Below are positions 52,149-58,627 of a stretch of 64,000 nt of DNA, one piece after another. The notes under the pieces were generated by a model. It made no database searches and was not told where the DNA came from. It saw nothing but the letters and a program-made list of their open reading frames with translations. A program made the translations under genes and the position numbers. The stretch's first letter is position 1, and each line of letters begins with the position of its first letter. The DNA is from Aulosira sp. ZfuVER01 (GTDB lineage Bacteria; Cyanobacteriota; Cyanobacteriia; Cyanobacteriales; Nostocaceae): the NCBI GenBank assembly GCA_034530615.2, contig JAVRCV020000023.1, positions 35,173 through 99,172 of the forward strand, read 5' to 3'.

Positions 52149-53327
52149 CTAAGCTAATACTTGCACTTTCATTGACCGTGCTAACTCCGCCGCCACCTCT
52201 GGGCGAGAAAATTCTGGTGGGGGTAATTCACCCCGGCGCAGCATTTCCCGAACTTTGGTTCCCGACAGGTGAACTCGTTCTTCTGGCCTACTAGGACTAG
52301 TTTTATTTGTGGCCATTTGTTTGGTGCGAGTGCAGTAAAAAGCGTGTTCAAACTTCATCGGTACAATACCCAATTCATTTGGCTCAAACTCATCAAAGAT
52401 ATATTGAGCATCATAAGTACCGTAGTAGTCACCCACACCTGCATGATCTCGCCCAACAATAAAGTGAGTACAACCGTAGTTCTTGCGGACTAAAGCATGG
52501 AAAATTGCTTCCCGTGGACCAGCGTAACGCATTGCTGCCGGATTAATTGCCAAAATCACTCTATCTAAAGGATAGTAGTGTTCCAGCAAAATTTCATAGC
52601 AGCGCATCCGCACATCAGCAGCGATGTCATCTTCTTTTGTTGCCCCTACCAATGGGTGCAAAAATAGACCATCTACGGTTTCTAAAGCGCACTTTTGAAT
52701 ATATTCATGGGCGCGGTGGATGGGGTTGCGAGTTTGAAAGCCAACGATAGTTTTCCAGCCTTTAGTTTTGAACATTTGCCGAGATGCGGCAGGATCGATT
52801 TGATAAGCGGGAAACTGAGGATGGGGATCGCGTTCTAACAGCCAGATGTCGCCTGCAAGATTTACTGCTCCCTGGTTATAGACTACCTGTACCCCAGGAT
52901 GTTTAGCATCATCAGTGCGATAGACATTAATTGCTTCGCGGGTTTTATCGTAGCGATATTTCTGTGTTAGCTGTAAAACCCCAATATATTCGCCGTTGGG
53001 GTTATCTAGACGGATCAAGCCGCCTTCTTTGAGAGGGGAAGCTACTTCTTCGGCTACCGACAGTGTAATAGGAATTGACCACACCAGACCGTTAGCTAGG
53101 CGCATTTCTGTAACCACGCGATCGTAGTCTTCCTGGTTCATAAAACCTTTGAGTGGACTAAAGGCGCCGATCGCAATCATCTCTAAATCAGAAACGGCTC
53201 GTTCGTCAAGTTGCACTCGTGGCAAAAATTCAGCCTTTGAGAGAAACTCTTCTCTTTGTTCTGGCGTGGCGATGCGATTAACCAACTGTCCACCGTGCGG
53301 CGCAATAGCATCTGAATGGTAACTCAA
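52149..53327 (-). CDS. sat: Sulfate adenylyltransferase
   Basis: [28 protein letters not shown] start after AGAGGGG RBS. Confidence 0.97.
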
Positions 53328-53843
53328 CGTAATCCCCTCTTTGCGTTCAGGTAATTGTTTCAAACTATGTACTAACTTATCAAAAAGTTAATAAAATTAC
53401 ATAAAATCAGTACTTTTAGGCTAGCAGATGATTATTTCTACTAACTTTCTAGTAATCACCCTGTTTTAGTACTTGTGTACCGCTTTATTGGTTGATTTTT
53501 CTGTCTAGTAATTTTCTAAACCAGTTGACATTAGCTATATGTGTTACCTAATTTTATCTGAAAACATATCTGATAATTTAATAAGCATTGCTATACAAGC
53601 ATCGTAGCTACATTATCAGCTATACCCCACTCCATAAGCGCCTATTTTAGACCCTGACTCGTTTTGATGAGCTTATTAGTATGGGTGTAACTTAATTATT
53701 CGCCGTCAAGCCACATACAGCCTATGCAGAAATTTATCAAATAACTTATTTAACAAATCCAGACAACACACCTACTCGTCTCGTCTTGATTCTGTTACAT
53801 AATCAAGTTAAGATGATGAAAGGTAGATTATAGCGTTGAATCA

Positions 53844-54266
53844 ATGAATAAATATCTAGTCGAGTTAAGGCACTCTACTAGTGGTGAAATGATGCTCATT
53901 CAACTAGAAGCTAATTCACCAGATGATGCTTGCGATCGCGCCGTGGAAGCTAACCCAGATTATGAAGTGGTCAAGGTTAAGCACACACACGGAGGTAAAC
54001 GCAGTGGCGCTGGTAGAACTAGTAAATGGGGCGATGGAGTCAAGACACAGGTTTACCGTTTACCTCCTGTCATTGGTGACAAAGCTGAGGATATAGTCAG
54101 TGAACTAGAAATAGTTAACCATATCCTTGAAAGTTGGCAATCAAAAGTAGATGAGTCAAAAGCTAAATCAGCTAACGGTCAACCATCGGAGCGTTATAAG
54201 TATGTTGCTCAACTGGTAGCTGACTTAAAACAAGCAATGCAAGTGACGGGTAACAAGCTGGTGTAA
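53844..54266 (+). CDS. Putative DNA-binding protein (HGGKRxGAGR motif plus RHH-like strand)
   Basis: HGGKRSGAGRTSKW..KTQVYRLP. Confidence 0.6.
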   Translation: MNKYLVELRHSTSGEMMLIQLEANSPDDACDRAVEANPDYEVVKVKHTHGGKRSGAGRTSKWGDGVKTQVYRLPPVIGDKAEDIVSELEIVNHILESWQSKVDESKAKSANGQPSERYKYVAQLVADLKQAMQVTGNKLV

Positions 54267-54413
54267 TCAGGGCATTATTTTAATTTGGTGGTCAATTTTT
54301 TGAGAAAAAACATAGGTTTTTCGATTTTTCGTTTCCGGCAGGGTAAGGGAACACAAAAAAGAGATGACCTAATTCCAGAACTAGCTAAGGTTAGGTCTAG
54401 CTTATTTATCCAC

Positions 54414-54436
54414 TTGTTAGACATCGTGTCTAACAA
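54414..54436. repeat. Palindrome copy 1 TTGTTAGACA-TCG-TGTCTAACAA
   Basis: Also at 54806-54828 (2 mismatches) and 55157-55179. Confidence 0.9.
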
Positions 54437-54550
54437 CTTACAAAGAACATGGAAGCAATAAAAAATACGTGGAAGAAATTACTAGGGAATAAGTATAGAT
54501 AGGCACTCCATCCGATGATGTGCCATCCCCAAGGGTAGCAGTATAAGACA

Positions 54551-54805
54551 ATGGCAAACCATAGCGGTGATTCAAAATTCAGAACTGCCGCAAAACCCGT
54601 AGAGATTTATTTTGATGATGAACTCCACAGTAAAAACTTTATGCAAACACTGAGAATGTTAGAGCAGTTACAACCAGAGTTATTTGCGGGATTAATACTA
54701 GTTTCTGATACTACCTGGCTAATACCGGGAACCACATTAAGAGTTATCAGGCTAGATGATTTAATTCCTAAAATCATTCAAATGCACAGTACTTTGATTG
54801 ATTAG
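54551..54805 (+). CDS. Hypothetical element protein (84 aa)
   Basis: ORF between palindromes 1 and 2; its stop abuts palindrome 2. Confidence 0.55.
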   Translation: MANHSGDSKFRTAAKPVEIYFDDELHSKNFMQTLRMLEQLQPELFAGLILVSDTTWLIPGTTLRVIRLDDLIPKIIQMHSTLID

Positions 54806-55046
54806 TTATTAGACATCGTATCTAACAAATTAAAACGGAGAATAGAGACAATGACAGTTTGGTATAACGAGGCAAAATAGCTACTCACTTAATTTATCTA
54901 ATAACTTACTTGGTAGTTTTTTAGACATACATCATTACAACGACAATAAAACATCAGTCTTGATTAGGAAATTTTTATATTTTGAACTTATAAAAAGAGT
55001 TTAGGTAAATCCATCACTAAAGAATACAAAAAAACTTGATGGATAT

Positions 55047-55133
55047 TTAAGATAATTTCCTCCCAATACAGTGCGTTGTACTATTTTGTGTCGCATTTGC
55101 ACCGAATACTTCAGTTAATGTTGGTTCTGGCAT
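55047..55133 (-). pseudogene. Truncated cyanobacterial prophage-like gene (MPEPTLTEVFGANATQ...)
   Basis: 28 codons after an AAGG-like RBS; N-terminus recalled from hypothetical proteins of cyanobacterial prophage-like elements. Confidence 0.4.
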
Positions 55134-55239
55134 ATCTCTTTACCTTAGATGTTGAGTTGTTAGACATCGTGTCTAACAAGTGGATAAATAAGCTACTGAA
55201 GTCTATTATAGTGAAACTTACCATAATTACAAGAAACTC

Positions 55240-55494
55240 ATGGCATTACCAGAAGGCTTCTCACCATTTGAACACTTACAAGACATGATTAGACTTAACC
55301 ACAACAAGCTTGTTAGAGAATATTTCTCTGATGTTGGTGGTGAAGATTGGGAAGCAGATTTAAGTAGCAGTAGACCACAACTAAGGGTAGCTGCCACGAT
55401 GGTAGATGATGATACAGCCGAAATGACATTGATGAGACTGTACTTTTTTTATGACATCTCGTGGATACCACACACCGCTATGCAGGTTTGGTAG
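55240..55494 (+). pseudogene. Probably truncated cyanobacterial prophage-like gene
   Basis: MALPEGFSPFEHLQD...WEADLSSSRPQLRVAATMVDDDTAEMTLMRL matches my recollection of a longer hypothetical family. Confidence 0.45.
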
Positions 55495-55792
55495 ATGTCT
55501 AATGTCTTCGGTTATGTCTTACTGTGCTGGAAGGTCTAGGACGTTCTGTGGAGAATTATCGATGAAAACCTTATGGTTCCTATGGCTTTGAGAGTTATGG
55601 TAGAAATCACCATTACTGTGGTATGTTGGATGGAAATCGAATGTACCTTACAGAATTACTCAAGGGAGCCTGCAACAAAGCTCCTTGTTTATTTATGGAA
55701 AAATGGAAGGTACTTTCCATTCTGCTTTCTTGCGGCATTGATGGCTGGAATGTACCTTACAATGAGACAAAGATTCTGGAAGGTACATTCTA

Positions 55793-56395
55793 ATGCAAGA
55801 GATAACCCAATTAGTGCAACTGTATAAAATATATGAGGGGCTGAACATAGGTATTTTTGATAGACAGCTACCTGAGAATACTGTCTTGAAAATTGGACAT
55901 AAAACATCTGATGGTAATTACCGCCCTGGTAAATGGGATGATACGCGAAACCAAAAAATATGTGACGAAATAGAGATTAATGATAAACTTCTGAATTTTC
56001 CAAAAGAGGAATGGTTAGCTGTCCTTGTTCATCAAATGATTCATCAGTGGCAGTATGATCACGGTAATCAGAAAACAACAAAACATTATCACAATCAAGA
56101 GTATGTGAAAAAAGCAGCAGGTATAGGTTTAATCATCAAGACTGGGTATGAAAATGAGCAATCAATTGACCATAATGGAAAATTTATGCAAGTAATTCAA
56201 AACTTAGATAGTGAATTGATATTGAAGCCTAGGAATGTTATTTCACAGGTAACTGAAGAATCGAAGAATGGAAAAAAGAAAAAATATACTTGCCCTAGTT
56301 GTGGTTTTAATTCGTGGGCAAAACCAGGAGCGACTAATATATGCTGTAACTGCAATGGTTCAGTAAAACAAATGATAGAACAGATTAAATCCTAG
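55793..56395 (+). CDS. SprT-like metalloprotease domain with zinc ribbon (HQxxH variant)
   Basis: EIEIN, VLVHQMIHQWQ, YHNQEY, YTCPSCG...CCNC. Confidence 0.8.
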   Translation: MQEITQLVQLYKIYEGLNIGIFDRQLPENTVLKIGHKTSDGNYRPGKWDDTRNQKICDEIEINDKLLNFPKEEWLAVLVHQMIHQWQYDHGNQKTTKHYHNQEYVKKAAGIGLIIKTGYENEQSIDHNGKFMQVIQNLDSELILKPRNVISQVTEESKNGKKKKYTCPSCGFNSWAKPGATNICCNCNGSVKQMIEQIKS

Positions 56396-56469
56396 ATGTA
56401 TGTGTGTTAGGTAAAAGTTATCAGATAAGTTATGTAATAAAAATGGGCAACACATATATAGGCATATAA

Positions 56470-56499
56470 AAAGAGAGTAGATACCAACCTACTCTCTTT
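56470..56499. terminator. Hairpin terminator between convergent SprT and integrase genes
   Basis: AAAGAGAGTAG/CTACTCTCTTT stem. Confidence 0.7.
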
Positions 56500-56520
56500 C
56501 GATTTTTATGATTAGTTAAG

Positions 56521-57798
56521 TTAAAAATCTCCTAGTGTGACATTGCGATTACTGTCTAAATAATGCTCAATAATTACATCAACCGAGTTACCACAACTAT
56601 CGGCTAATAGTTTTAAATCAGTGCCATTATTAGCTTGAATGCTAATGAAAGTATGCCGTGTTGAGTATGGCTTAAGATATTGTAATTTACCTTTTTCAGC
56701 TAGTTCTGTAACAGCCCCCGGATATTTATAAGTTGAACCATTAGCATAAACTGCCATCTGTTGCCAGCCTCTTTTTAAGCTACCCGTGGTTATTCGACTA
56801 CCATTTTTAGTTTTAAATACTAAATCATCAGGATTTTTACCATCGCCATATAGTCTTGTTAATAGATTGATTAATCTATTCATTCCTTTCATTTTGAACA
56901 TTCTAACAACGTCTGTTTTAGTTCCTTTTGTAATACCACTTCGGGAATCATAAGCTTCCTTAAAAATTATCCAACCAGTATCAAGCTTAATATGTTCCCA
57001 CTTCAAAGCAAAAGCCTCACCATGTCTACAACCAGTGAGAAATAAAAACTCTACGATGTCGGACATTCCGCTAATTGTTGTTCTTTGATGATTTCTCATG
57101 TAGTCAATAATTAAGTCTCGCTCTTCTATTGTGTATGCTCTATAGTCTTCAGCCTCGGAAAGTTGTTTAGACTTTTTAGGCACTTTATAGTGTTTTTTGA
57201 TTTCCAAAAAGTAATCTTCTGGTAGTATTTTTTGGTTAACAGCGCGTTGACACATTCCACTTAATATGCCCAAAAAGCTTTTAATTTCAGATCTATTTTT
57301 ATCTTTAGCTAAAAAATCTTTGATTATTTCCAAAGCTGTTTCATTGTCTAGAGGTTTATCTAGATAGGGTTTAAGCAAGTTTGGGTATTTGCACAAATAA
57401 TTATTCTCGTAAGTTGTTTTTTCTATCGCTCCTGTACTCAGCTTCCATTCACTGAACTCTTCCCATAGTTCCCTGAGTTTAGGCAGTGGTTTTGCAGTTG
57501 GTAGCTGAGTAACTGTAGCTAGTGGCTTGATATCCAGGTACTTAGCTAGTGTTGGGTCAAAGTTCACTCCGTTCTGGTAGTCGATATCCTCCTGTATCCG
57601 TCGTGCTATGCCTTCTGCCCATTGACGGTTATCCGGTGTGTCCTTTCTTCCACCTAGTGCCTTGTAAGCTTGTCTCTTGCCATAGAACTGCTGACTGATT
57701 TTGGTAGAAAACTGCAAGCGGAGTGTTCCTTTGTCGGTTCCCACGTTTACATCAGTAAATTGCTTGGAACCTTTGTTATTGGGTTGTTTAGAGTACAT
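56521..57798 (-). CDS. Tyrosine recombinase (XisA/XisC-like cyanobacterial integrase)
   Basis: Arm-binding-like N-terminus (GTLRLQF), TGCRHGEA, KPYSTRHTF, CGNS, IIEHY. Confidence 0.92.
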   Translation of the reverse strand: MYSKQPNNKGSKQFTDVNVGTDKGTLRLQFSTKISQQFYGKRQAYKALGGRKDTPDNRQWAEGIARRIQEDIDYQNGVNFDPTLAKYLDIKPLATVTQLPTAKPLPKLRELWEEFSEWKLSTGAIEKTTYENNYLCKYPNLLKPYLDKPLDNETALEIIKDFLAKDKNRSEIKSFLGILSGMCQRAVNQKILPEDYFLEIKKHYKVPKKSKQLSEAEDYRAYTIEERDLIIDYMRNHQRTTISGMSDIVEFLFLTGCRHGEAFALKWEHIKLDTGWIIFKEAYDSRSGITKGTKTDVVRMFKMKGMNRLINLLTRLYGDGKNPDDLVFKTKNGSRITTGSLKRGWQQMAVYANGSTYKYPGAVTELAEKGKLQYLKPYSTRHTFISIQANNGTDLKLLADSCGNSVDVIIEHYLDSNRNVTLGDF

Positions 57799-57973
57799 CT
57801 AGTATTTTTCTAGTAGATTAAGTGGATTAAGTTATCAGATAACTCTAGAGTACTAGATTTTTCGTTTTTGTACTAACTTATCAAAATGCTGGTACACAGA
57901 GAAAAAGAGTTTGGATAATAGTGCAGAGGGAATAAGTTACGCTGAAGCTAATGCACCTTACAGCCTAGAAATT

Positions 57974-58627
57974 ATGACTGCTGTATCCCCTGTGGTTAAA
58001 CCTGTTAGCTTGATGCGGCTAGCGCCTGGTAGTGTTGTGACTATTGAGGATGTAAGTTGGGAAGAATTTGAATCAATATTGCAAGAACTGGGAGAAAAGC
58101 GATCACTGCGAGTTGCTTACAGCAATTCTAATTTAGAAATCATGGTTCCTCTACCCGAACACGAAAAACCAAAAGACTTAATTTCTGATATTGTCAAAAT
58201 TTTACTTAAGAAGCTAGGGAAAAAGTATGAACCTTTTGGTTCAACCACATTTAAGCAGGAAAATTCAGCAGGAGTAGAACCAGATGCTTGCTTCTATATC
58301 GAGAATTACCAACAAATGATTGGTAAGCGTAGGCTAGAACCAGACGATCCGCCCCCTGATTTGGCAATTGAGACAGATGTCACTTCTAAAACAACTCTTG
58401 ATGCTTACGAAGCGATCGCTGTTCCAGAATTATGGATTTACAATGGCAAAAAGCTCTCTATTTATCTGCTTCAAGATGGGCGTTATATTCAATGTGAGAA
58501 TAGCCCCACCTTTCCTAATATCGCTTTAACTCAGATAATTCCCGCTACTATAGAACGCGCTTGGCAAGTAGGAAGCGTGCAAGCTATAGAAGAGTTTGAG
58601 AACGAGATTAACTCAACTTATTTCTGA
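57974..58627 (+). CDS. Uma2 family endonuclease
   Basis: VSWEEFE, EPDACFYI, PPDLAIETD, VPELWIY. Confidence 0.9.
   Translation: MTAVSPVVKPVSLMRLAPGSVVTIEDVSWEEFESILQELGEKRSLRVAYSNSNLEIMVPLPEHEKPKDLISDIVKILLKKLGKKYEPFGSTTFKQENSAGVEPDACFYIENYQQMIGKRRLEPDDPPPDLAIETDVTSKTTLDAYEAIAVPELWIYNGKKLSIYLLQDGRYIQCENSPTFPNIALTQIIPATIERAWQVGSVQAIEEFENEINSTYF

Follow-up and report, generated by a model that had tools for sequence, protein, structure and literature searches.

Does a mobile element that has landed within the promoter of a housekeeping gene act as a regulated switch, or is it simply tolerated by its host? This question is raised by a 4.5-kb element found just upstream of sat, the sulfate adenylyltransferase gene of the heterocyst-forming cyanobacterium Aulosira sp. 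ZfuVER01. The window analyzed here is the whole stretch of 64,000 nucleotides (contig JAVRCV020000023.1, positions 35,173 to 99,172, forward strand), and positions refer to it unless a contig or locus is named. The original prediction, made from these letters, had proposed a Xis-like element that exchanges the sat promoter by recombination and thereby links sulfate activation to differentiation or stress. Our analysis indicates that this is a recently acquired, site-specific integrative element. It is probably a tolerated mini-element, inserted by its own integrase at the sat promoter, which leaves sat expressed and is excised occasionally rather than by a host program.

Boundaries of the Element and the Empty Site

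The element is flanked by an exact 18-bp direct repeat with a spacing of 4,501 bp between the copies (table 1). The gap is 40 bp between sat and the left copy and 70 bp between the integrase gene and the right copy, and both genes lie on the minus strand, as had been described. No further exact copy was detected in the whole 8.03-Mb genome, in which only one more place matches at two mismatches. Some exact 18-mer repeat also appeared in 7 of 200 simulated 64-kb sequences, so that its length alone is only moderately unlikely to arise by chance. Because repeat length is weak proof, the boundaries were taken from comparison with relatives. In a DNA search, alignments of the sat-side flank run to the final base of the left copy and no further (query 485–486) in 13 of 14 same-genus genomes, the remaining one having no match for this flank; in other Nostocaceae genomes, 9 of 10 such alignments stop at 485–489, i.e., within three bases.

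The right host flank directly follows a single core in 14 of the 20 relative loci that were fetched, and the element interior was matched in none of the 20. A contig from run X4, a metagenome of a related strain from a separate study, contains the joint between 53367 and 57869 (depth 3, 23 letters on the short side); this is weak alone but agrees. The expected single-copy empty site is thus present in relatives. Since a relative with a sat flank 97% identical is empty at the site, the insertion appears to be young. In addition, the GC content of the element is 36.1% versus 41.3% for the genome, and the element contains one HIP1 octamer within 4.5 kb versus 0.96 per kb. The sat reading frame is intact and the insertion lies 40 bp upstream of it. 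The target is a promoter rather than a coding sequence or a tRNA gene, in agreement with the original prediction.

Position of the Insertion within the sat Promoter

To place the insertion relative to the promoter, we used the sat unit of strain PCC 7120, for which Dataset S1 of PMC10287535 gives a mapped transcription start site (TSS) and a 41-nt leader; the unit length in this dataset is compatible with a gene of 392 codons. The base 41 positions upstream of the Aulosira sat start is 53368, where the core ends on the minus strand. The Aulosira TSS is thus a predicted one, transferred by spacing. Among 42 named genomes, the distance from the last base of the core to the sat start codon is 41 or 42 nt in 23 of the 31 loci that the pattern could score. 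The attachment (att) core would therefore span about -17 to +1 of the sat promoter, and TAAGTT at -11 to -6 with TG at -14/-13 would be the best -10 candidate. Recognition of this extended -10-like TG-A-TAAGTT within the repeat is consistent with both the PCC 7120 leader spacing and core variation in the 42 loci, among which the fourth position of the hexamer is variable (the other core positions were fixed by the search pattern). Upstream of the core, six of the nine positions from -26 to -18 are conserved at 0.83–1.0 in these loci, followed by a weaker T-run and A-run out to about -43 (0.74–0.9).

In 7 of the 42 empty sites (L085, L092, L096, L103, L109, L115, and L116), four extra nucleotides, a duplication, were observed just after the hexamer, which might reflect slippage or, alternatively, a change that would block integration. 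An alternative promoter, with TTGATA of the core as the -35 and, after 18 nt, AACAAT as the -10, was also considered and rejected as the main one. It implies a leader of about 20 nt versus 41, and it is further disfavored by the 4-nt insertion between its boxes in the same seven loci; under it, both boxes would stay with sat anyway. Comparison by eye with NtcA and LexA motifs identified only half-sites in the core. The NtcA chromatin immunoprecipitation supplements of PMC3898017 contain no sat entry by gene name or coordinate prefix and are uninformative here, as the old locus tag was outside this search; Nodularia supplements have no sat row.

Both junctions retain the extended -10 and the +1, and only the DNA upstream of -17 is swapped. 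The proposed integrated geometry, with the native sat upstream region before the integrase gene and element DNA before sat, therefore holds. By analogy with lambda-type integrases, a 4,501-bp circle would be recombined by the tyrosine integrase at an 18-bp core overlapping the extended -10 and +1 of sat. Tolerance would follow from the presence of the -10 and +1 in both core copies, which would leave sat with its core promoter and its whole leader. Two by-products are expected: a complete native sat promoter would lie 71 nt upstream of the integrase gene, and sat, deprived of the conserved -44 to -18 block, may be altered in strength or regulation. The native sat promoter would be rebuilt exactly by excision, as an occasional mobile-element event rather than a host program.

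The Integrase and Its Relationship to XisA

Multiple alignment of the integrase family showed that the catalytic set R258, K294, Y378-x-x-R381, and Y413 is conserved in 34–35 of 35 rows, and N404 occupies the H/W position in 32 of them. Together with the direct-repeat cores and the single-copy empty site, these residues are what would be expected of an integrative element with a lambda-type tyrosine integrase. No solved-structure hit was obtained for this protein. Conserved TACTAGA-type motifs are repeated at both ends of elements across the family and are putative arm-type sites. A weak Arm-DNA-bind_2 hit (E 0.038) was also obtained.

The same genome holds a split nifD, a 19-kb nifD element (contig C22:56322-75362), and a 472-aa XisA-type recombinase beside its repeat, which we take to be XisA from this position. 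A paralog of the latter is located at contig C25:123348-124814. Blastp of the sat-element integrase against this XisA gave an E value of 0.007 over 40 residues only, and phmmer gave no hit. A profile of the 35 family rows picks 3 of 5,455 genome open reading frames (ORFs), and neither XisA nor its C25 paralog is among them. The two proteins share only the superfamily and the YxxR variant (Y for the first H of HxxR). Considering the lack of significant similarity in these comparisons, the term "Xis-like" is not supported for this element. A distant integrase (30% identity) was also observed at contig C5:14763-19600, adjoining a tRNA-like gene, a replication-type ORF, and a CRISPR-cas region.

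Occupancy, Excision, and Expression of sat

The distribution of the core was analyzed in 389 Nostocaceae genomes. The exact 17-mer core is present in 170 of them, and a double copy was detected only in Aulosira and one other genome (G140). Occupation of the sat site was found in one of these 170 genomes, Aulosira itself, and in none of the 42 named loci. The second copy in G140 was rejected as an occupied site: it is on another contig, without an integrase or element end, and was taken as chance because a reversed control pattern also hits once in the 389 genomes. This chance-level copy (L081:1544-4880, C362) is followed, about 130 bp downstream, by a pair of genes that seem to encode a TIR-domain protein and a short Argonaute.

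In runs X1 and X2 the whole stretch is on one contig, and in run X3 the element is on one contig (depth 130–818). No empty-site or circle joint was found in the contigs of these three runs, which may be the source of the genome assembly; contigs drop rare forms. Sat is required in growing cells, not only in heterocysts, and tblastn identified it as the sole ATP-sulfurylase hit in the genome. Because sat is single-copy and only the integrated form was assembled, the integrated state must support growth, unless the strain uses reduced sulfur. On nitrogen step-down in whole filaments of PCC 7120, sat changes by log2 -1.93 at 9 h and -2.33 at 24 h in the dataset of PMC10287535, which is the opposite of what heterocyst-timed integrase expression from the sat promoter would need.

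These observations bear directly on a host-programmed switch, in which excision in heterocysts or under stress would restore full sat expression. Such a switch would be served by an intact integrase, by an excision that rebuilds the native promoter exactly, and by the displacement of the conserved upstream block, and the strain does carry a nifD element. However, the integrase is unrelated to XisA, the core promoter is present on both sides, the element end is generic, and the site is occupied in a single strain. In addition, no excision joint appears in the contigs of three runs, sat falls on nitrogen removal in PCC 7120, and its product is needed outside heterocysts. We thus consider the differentiation-linked switch of the original prediction very unlikely, given the duplicated -10/+1, the single-copy sat gene, the occupancy of 1 in 170, and the expression and contig results above.

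The Element Family and Its Targets

Integrase matches at E <= 1e-60 were detected in 38 of the 389 genomes (at most four candidates scored per genome), and DNA matches to the distal arm in 65. Based on overlapping sets of 30 and 20 integrase loci and the 30 best distal-end loci, at least 16 targets were mapped. Nine of them lie at a promoter or 5' end (sat, a phosphoketolase-like gene, nblS, leuS, aroB, a moeB-like gene, DUF3110, yraN, and thiE), five lie in coding sequences (a DAHP-synthase-family gene, a hydrolase, two helicase sites, and an AAA_33 gene), and two are at 3' ends (a PGAP1-like gene and a convergent gap). The thiE, AAA_33, and convergent-gap targets were assigned without a mapped core, and three loci (L026, L069, and L128) are outside these assignments; the hydrolase is named without a Pfam hit, the other host names being derived from domain scans. 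No sat-site sister was found in viral contigs (single query) or in metagenomes, where the two loci found are both at the nblS site.

Sister integrases that are 70–77% identical use unrelated sites. A midpoint-rooted tree of 35 integrases mostly clusters the proteins that use a common site, except the two helicase-site ones, and places the sat integrase together with the phosphoketolase-promoter and hydrolase-gene integrases in a supported clade; this rooting gives no order of events. Sister elements with both ends mapped are about 1.5–6 kb long, and recurrent cargo includes SprT-like, Bro-N, KfrA_N, a 140-aa protein, and a 125-aa protein. A generic distal end, without adaptation to sat, is common to the family.

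At several targets the element ends have replaced host sequence. New start codons are seen at leuS, aroB, moeB, and yraN, and the distal end provides new starts to leuS, aroB, moeB, and the DUF3110 gene, with displacement of the native promoter. Because leuS, aroB, and moeB lose their native promoters there, the distal arm probably carries an outward-facing promoter. By analogy with Pcirc of ICEclc, its own role might be transcription of the integrase gene in the circle, and it would act on the host gene in the integrated state.

Considering such cases, the family may have been selected for housekeeping promoters and starts, so that the integrase reads the host state and the host gene comes to depend on the element end. 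The nine promoter or 5'-end targets fit this idea, as do the orphan ends that persist before leuS and thiE and the nblS leader, hit in three loci with two different integrase leaders. Furthermore, the insertion site of the 77%-identical sister falls in the -35 region, about -33 to -24, of the phosphoketolase-like gene, if the 39-nt leader of PCC 7120 alr1850 applies; we presume orthology to alr1850 from equal length and the locus tag. For nblS, no link to the tag alr3511 could be made. The alr1850 transcript falls on nitrogen removal in PCC 7120. On the other hand, seven of the 16 targets are within coding sequences or at 3' ends, and survival bias alone would favor insertions compatible with expression of the host gene. 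A conserved -10-like hexamer is present in the integrase leader itself, and the elements at yraN and thiE are in the opposite orientation. Promoter capture as a strategy is therefore considered unlikely. In a stronger version, the element would be a working promoter-exchange device: the integrase gene would be transcribed from the captured sat promoter, excision would occur at a rate governed by sulfur or nitrogen status and bring sat back from the element end to native control, and the family would be a promoter-hunting clade with ends that have permanently rewired leuS, thiE, moeB, nblS, and aroB across Nostocaceae. This version appears quite improbable.

Some family members interrupt coding sequences and have intact repeats (the DAHP-synthase-family gene, hydrolase, and helicase; L054, L052, L055, and L060). 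These are better candidates than sat for excision-dependent gene restoration.

Orphan Ends at leuS and thiE

In 17 of the 30 best distal-end loci, all from one genus (L130–L133, L136, L140–L143, L145–L151, and L154), the distal end provides leuS with a new ATG and about ten extra residues. None of these 17 genomes is among the 38 integrase-positive ones, and the leuS of Aulosira itself has an unreplaced start. The orphan end at leuS is likely a domesticated promoter and start of an essential gene.

The integrase-proximal end was detected upstream of thiE in seven mapped integrase loci and in the Aulosira genome (thiE-end loci: L032, L035, L036, L038–L040, L042, and L155–L159). On Aulosira contig C3:21600-22979, a 55%-identical family integrase is located head-to-head with thiE, without cargo or a recognizable far end. 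Relics at thiE, intact or decayed, are present in five of five further genus members, all of which retain the leader and the first integrase codons despite decay of the rest. This suggests that the element end now serves as the thiE 5' region genus-wide. The leuS and thiE cases may each represent a single old event, since the genomes are kin.

Such precedents raise the possibility that the sat element is likewise an inactive relic, past excision and heading to fixation. Its decayed cargo fragments and the lack of an excised form in the run contigs are compatible with this fate. However, the cores are identical, the arms are conserved, the full-length integrase retains every catalytic residue, and the empty site of the 97%-identical relative indicates a young insertion; a relic is therefore extremely unlikely.

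The tolerated insertion of a mini-element thus appears to be the best explanation, and the element resembles a parasite that its host tolerates more than it does a programmed on/off switch. Several points weigh against this explanation. Continued transcription of sat in the carrier strain is a prediction, and the sat TSS is a spacing transfer with 11 of the 42 loci unscored. Neither a promoter scan nor the alignment of ends found a consensus outward promoter in the distal end. Rare excision may be compatible with the contig data, and the location of the nearest sister (77%), also in a promoter, is as compatible with selection for promoter targets as with chance.

Other Parts of the Element

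The features of the element and its flanks are listed in table 1.

Table 1. Features of the sat-Promoter Element and Its Flanks (window positions)
Feature	Coordinates	Strand	Evidence
sat, sulfate adenylyltransferase, 392 aa, TTG start 53327-53325	52149..53327	-	Pfam ATP-sulfurylase E 4e-97 and PUA_2
Native sat 5' leader, 41 nt, putative +1 at 53368	53328..53368	-	PCC 7120 UTR5 (5' untranslated region) = 41, spacing conserved
att core, sat-side copy	53368..53385	-	Holds TG and TAAGTT, putative -10
Conserved distal att arm, repeated TACTAGA/TAGTAGA motifs, replaces native upstream DNA of sat	53386..53520	-	Alignment of 17 ends
140-aa conserved family protein near distal end	53844..54266	+	Homologs 66–78% identical, same place in six sister elements
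Segment bounded by 41-bp inverted repeats	54398..55195	.	23-bp palindrome three times (54414, 54806, 55157)
Truncated 84-aa remnant of ~275-aa gene	55240..55494	+	66–72% DNA identity to start of 273–280-aa ORFs in L161, L162, L167
SprT-like protein, 200 aa	55793..56395	+	Pfam SprT-like E 1.8e-6; 41–49% identical homologs in four sister elements
Tyrosine integrase, 425 aa, ATG at 57798, open frame	56521..57798	-	Phage_integrase PF00589 E 3e-12, phrog_1
Integrase-proximal att arm and leader, TACTAGA motifs abutting ATG	57799..57868	-	Conserved in family; predicted arm-site role
att core, integrase-side copy	57869..57886	-	
Native upstream block of sat (about -44 to -18), displaced to a position before integrase	57887..57913	-	Conserved in 42 named loci
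Uma2-family host gene	57975..58627	+	Divergent from sat at empty site in close relatives

No conjugation or virion genes were found among the six element ORFs scanned, and a single query of viral contigs identified no relative. The 140-aa protein has no informative Pfam, PHROG, or NCBIfam hit, and its Atlas leads are all below 0.9; it might be a directionality factor or repressor. A perfect TTGACA, 18 nt, TAATTT arrangement at 53526-53555 (plus strand), below the promoter-scan threshold, points into the element and is a candidate promoter of this gene.

The segment bounded by inverted repeats contains an 84-aa ORF (54551-54805) and a reversed gene fragment from another element type, and the 3-bp centers of its three palindromes are all oriented alike. 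The flanks in 54398-55494 are truncated, divergently oriented pieces of two genes from a different element class. The ~275-aa gene family belongs to a different class of cyanobacterial integrated elements, which in L163–L166 adjoins a short integrase-like ORF of ~190 aa. The region 54398-55494 might be what remains of a nested element after rearrangement.

A 44-bp inverted repeat (80%) was observed between 53536-53579 and 56415-56458, and a 15-bp palindrome (57831-57845) within the integrase-proximal arm. The latter is one of the AGTTATCAGATAACT-like palindromes, which resemble part of the att core. It is possible that these palindromes and the 44-bp repeat represent operator or secondary integrase sites.

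Comparison with Known Systems

No account of this integrase family or of a sat-promoter element was found in the literature, searched mostly at the abstract level and with island databases (TIGER/Islander) outside the search. XisA (nifD) and XisC (hupL) are recombinases of elements excised in heterocysts (PMC4874684; PMC11249958). The sat element resembles these in having a tyrosine recombinase adjoining one direct repeat in a heterocyst-forming cyanobacterium, with the Y for the first H of HxxR that Aulosira XisA also has. It differs in showing no significant similarity to the XisA of its own genome, in targeting a promoter while leaving the gene uninterrupted, and in being present in one strain at a gene that is not a heterocyst gene. 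A survey by Hilton et al. (2016, PMC4874684) covered interrupted genes near XisA-like queries and reported 44 xis-like genes without an interrupted gene; its Table 1, to which our comparison is limited, includes no sat, leuS, thiE, or moeB target. The sat element offers no support for a new case of heterocyst rearrangement, and a regulated switch is possible but unsupported.

The closest analogs appear to be SXT/prfC, the dusA islands, and Pcirc of ICEclc. The SXT/R391 ICEs (integrative and conjugative elements) integrate at the 5' end of prfC (PMC5812530), and islands with dusA-associated integrases supply new 5' sequence and a putative promoter to dusA (Farrugia et al. 2015, PMC4482086). The entry of tyrosine integrases at housekeeping 5' ends is shared with our family, as illustrated by leuS, aroB, moeB, and yraN. 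However, each of those has a single target gene, versus at least 16 for the sat-element family, whose members measure 1.5–6 kb and show no sign of conjugation or phage genes. The crossover at sat falls within the promoter itself and leaves the coding sequence unreplaced: in comparison with 5'-end-replacing islands, only upstream DNA is exchanged, and promoter activity of the element end is predicted. ICEclc targets the 3' ends of tRNA-Gly genes, and its outward promoter Pcirc at the far end precedes the integrase gene in the circle (PMC5812530). The sat element may be similar in that recombination alters the sequence upstream of the integrase gene and would place an outward far-end promoter before it in the circle. 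In the ICEclc account, the outward promoter is no stand-in for a host promoter, whereas in the sat element such a promoter is putative and the integrated integrase gene follows the host promoter.

The Listeria comK prophage is an example of active lysogeny, i.e., a switch that regulates gene integrity. Precise excision could similarly restore the sat locus, but regulated excision or an off state has no evidence here.

Implications

The sat element provides a natural case of a site-specific recombinase crossover at the -10/+1, by which a host promoter is handed to an integrase and the upstream region of a housekeeping gene is swapped. The fast retargeting within the family offers a model for the evolution of tyrosine-integrase specificity, and its members are a possible source of integration tools for filamentous cyanobacteria. 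Leftover element ends now appear to serve as the leuS 5' region in many members of one genus and as that of thiE across another, which would be a way for mobile DNA to rewrite core promoters and to mislead start-codon annotation.

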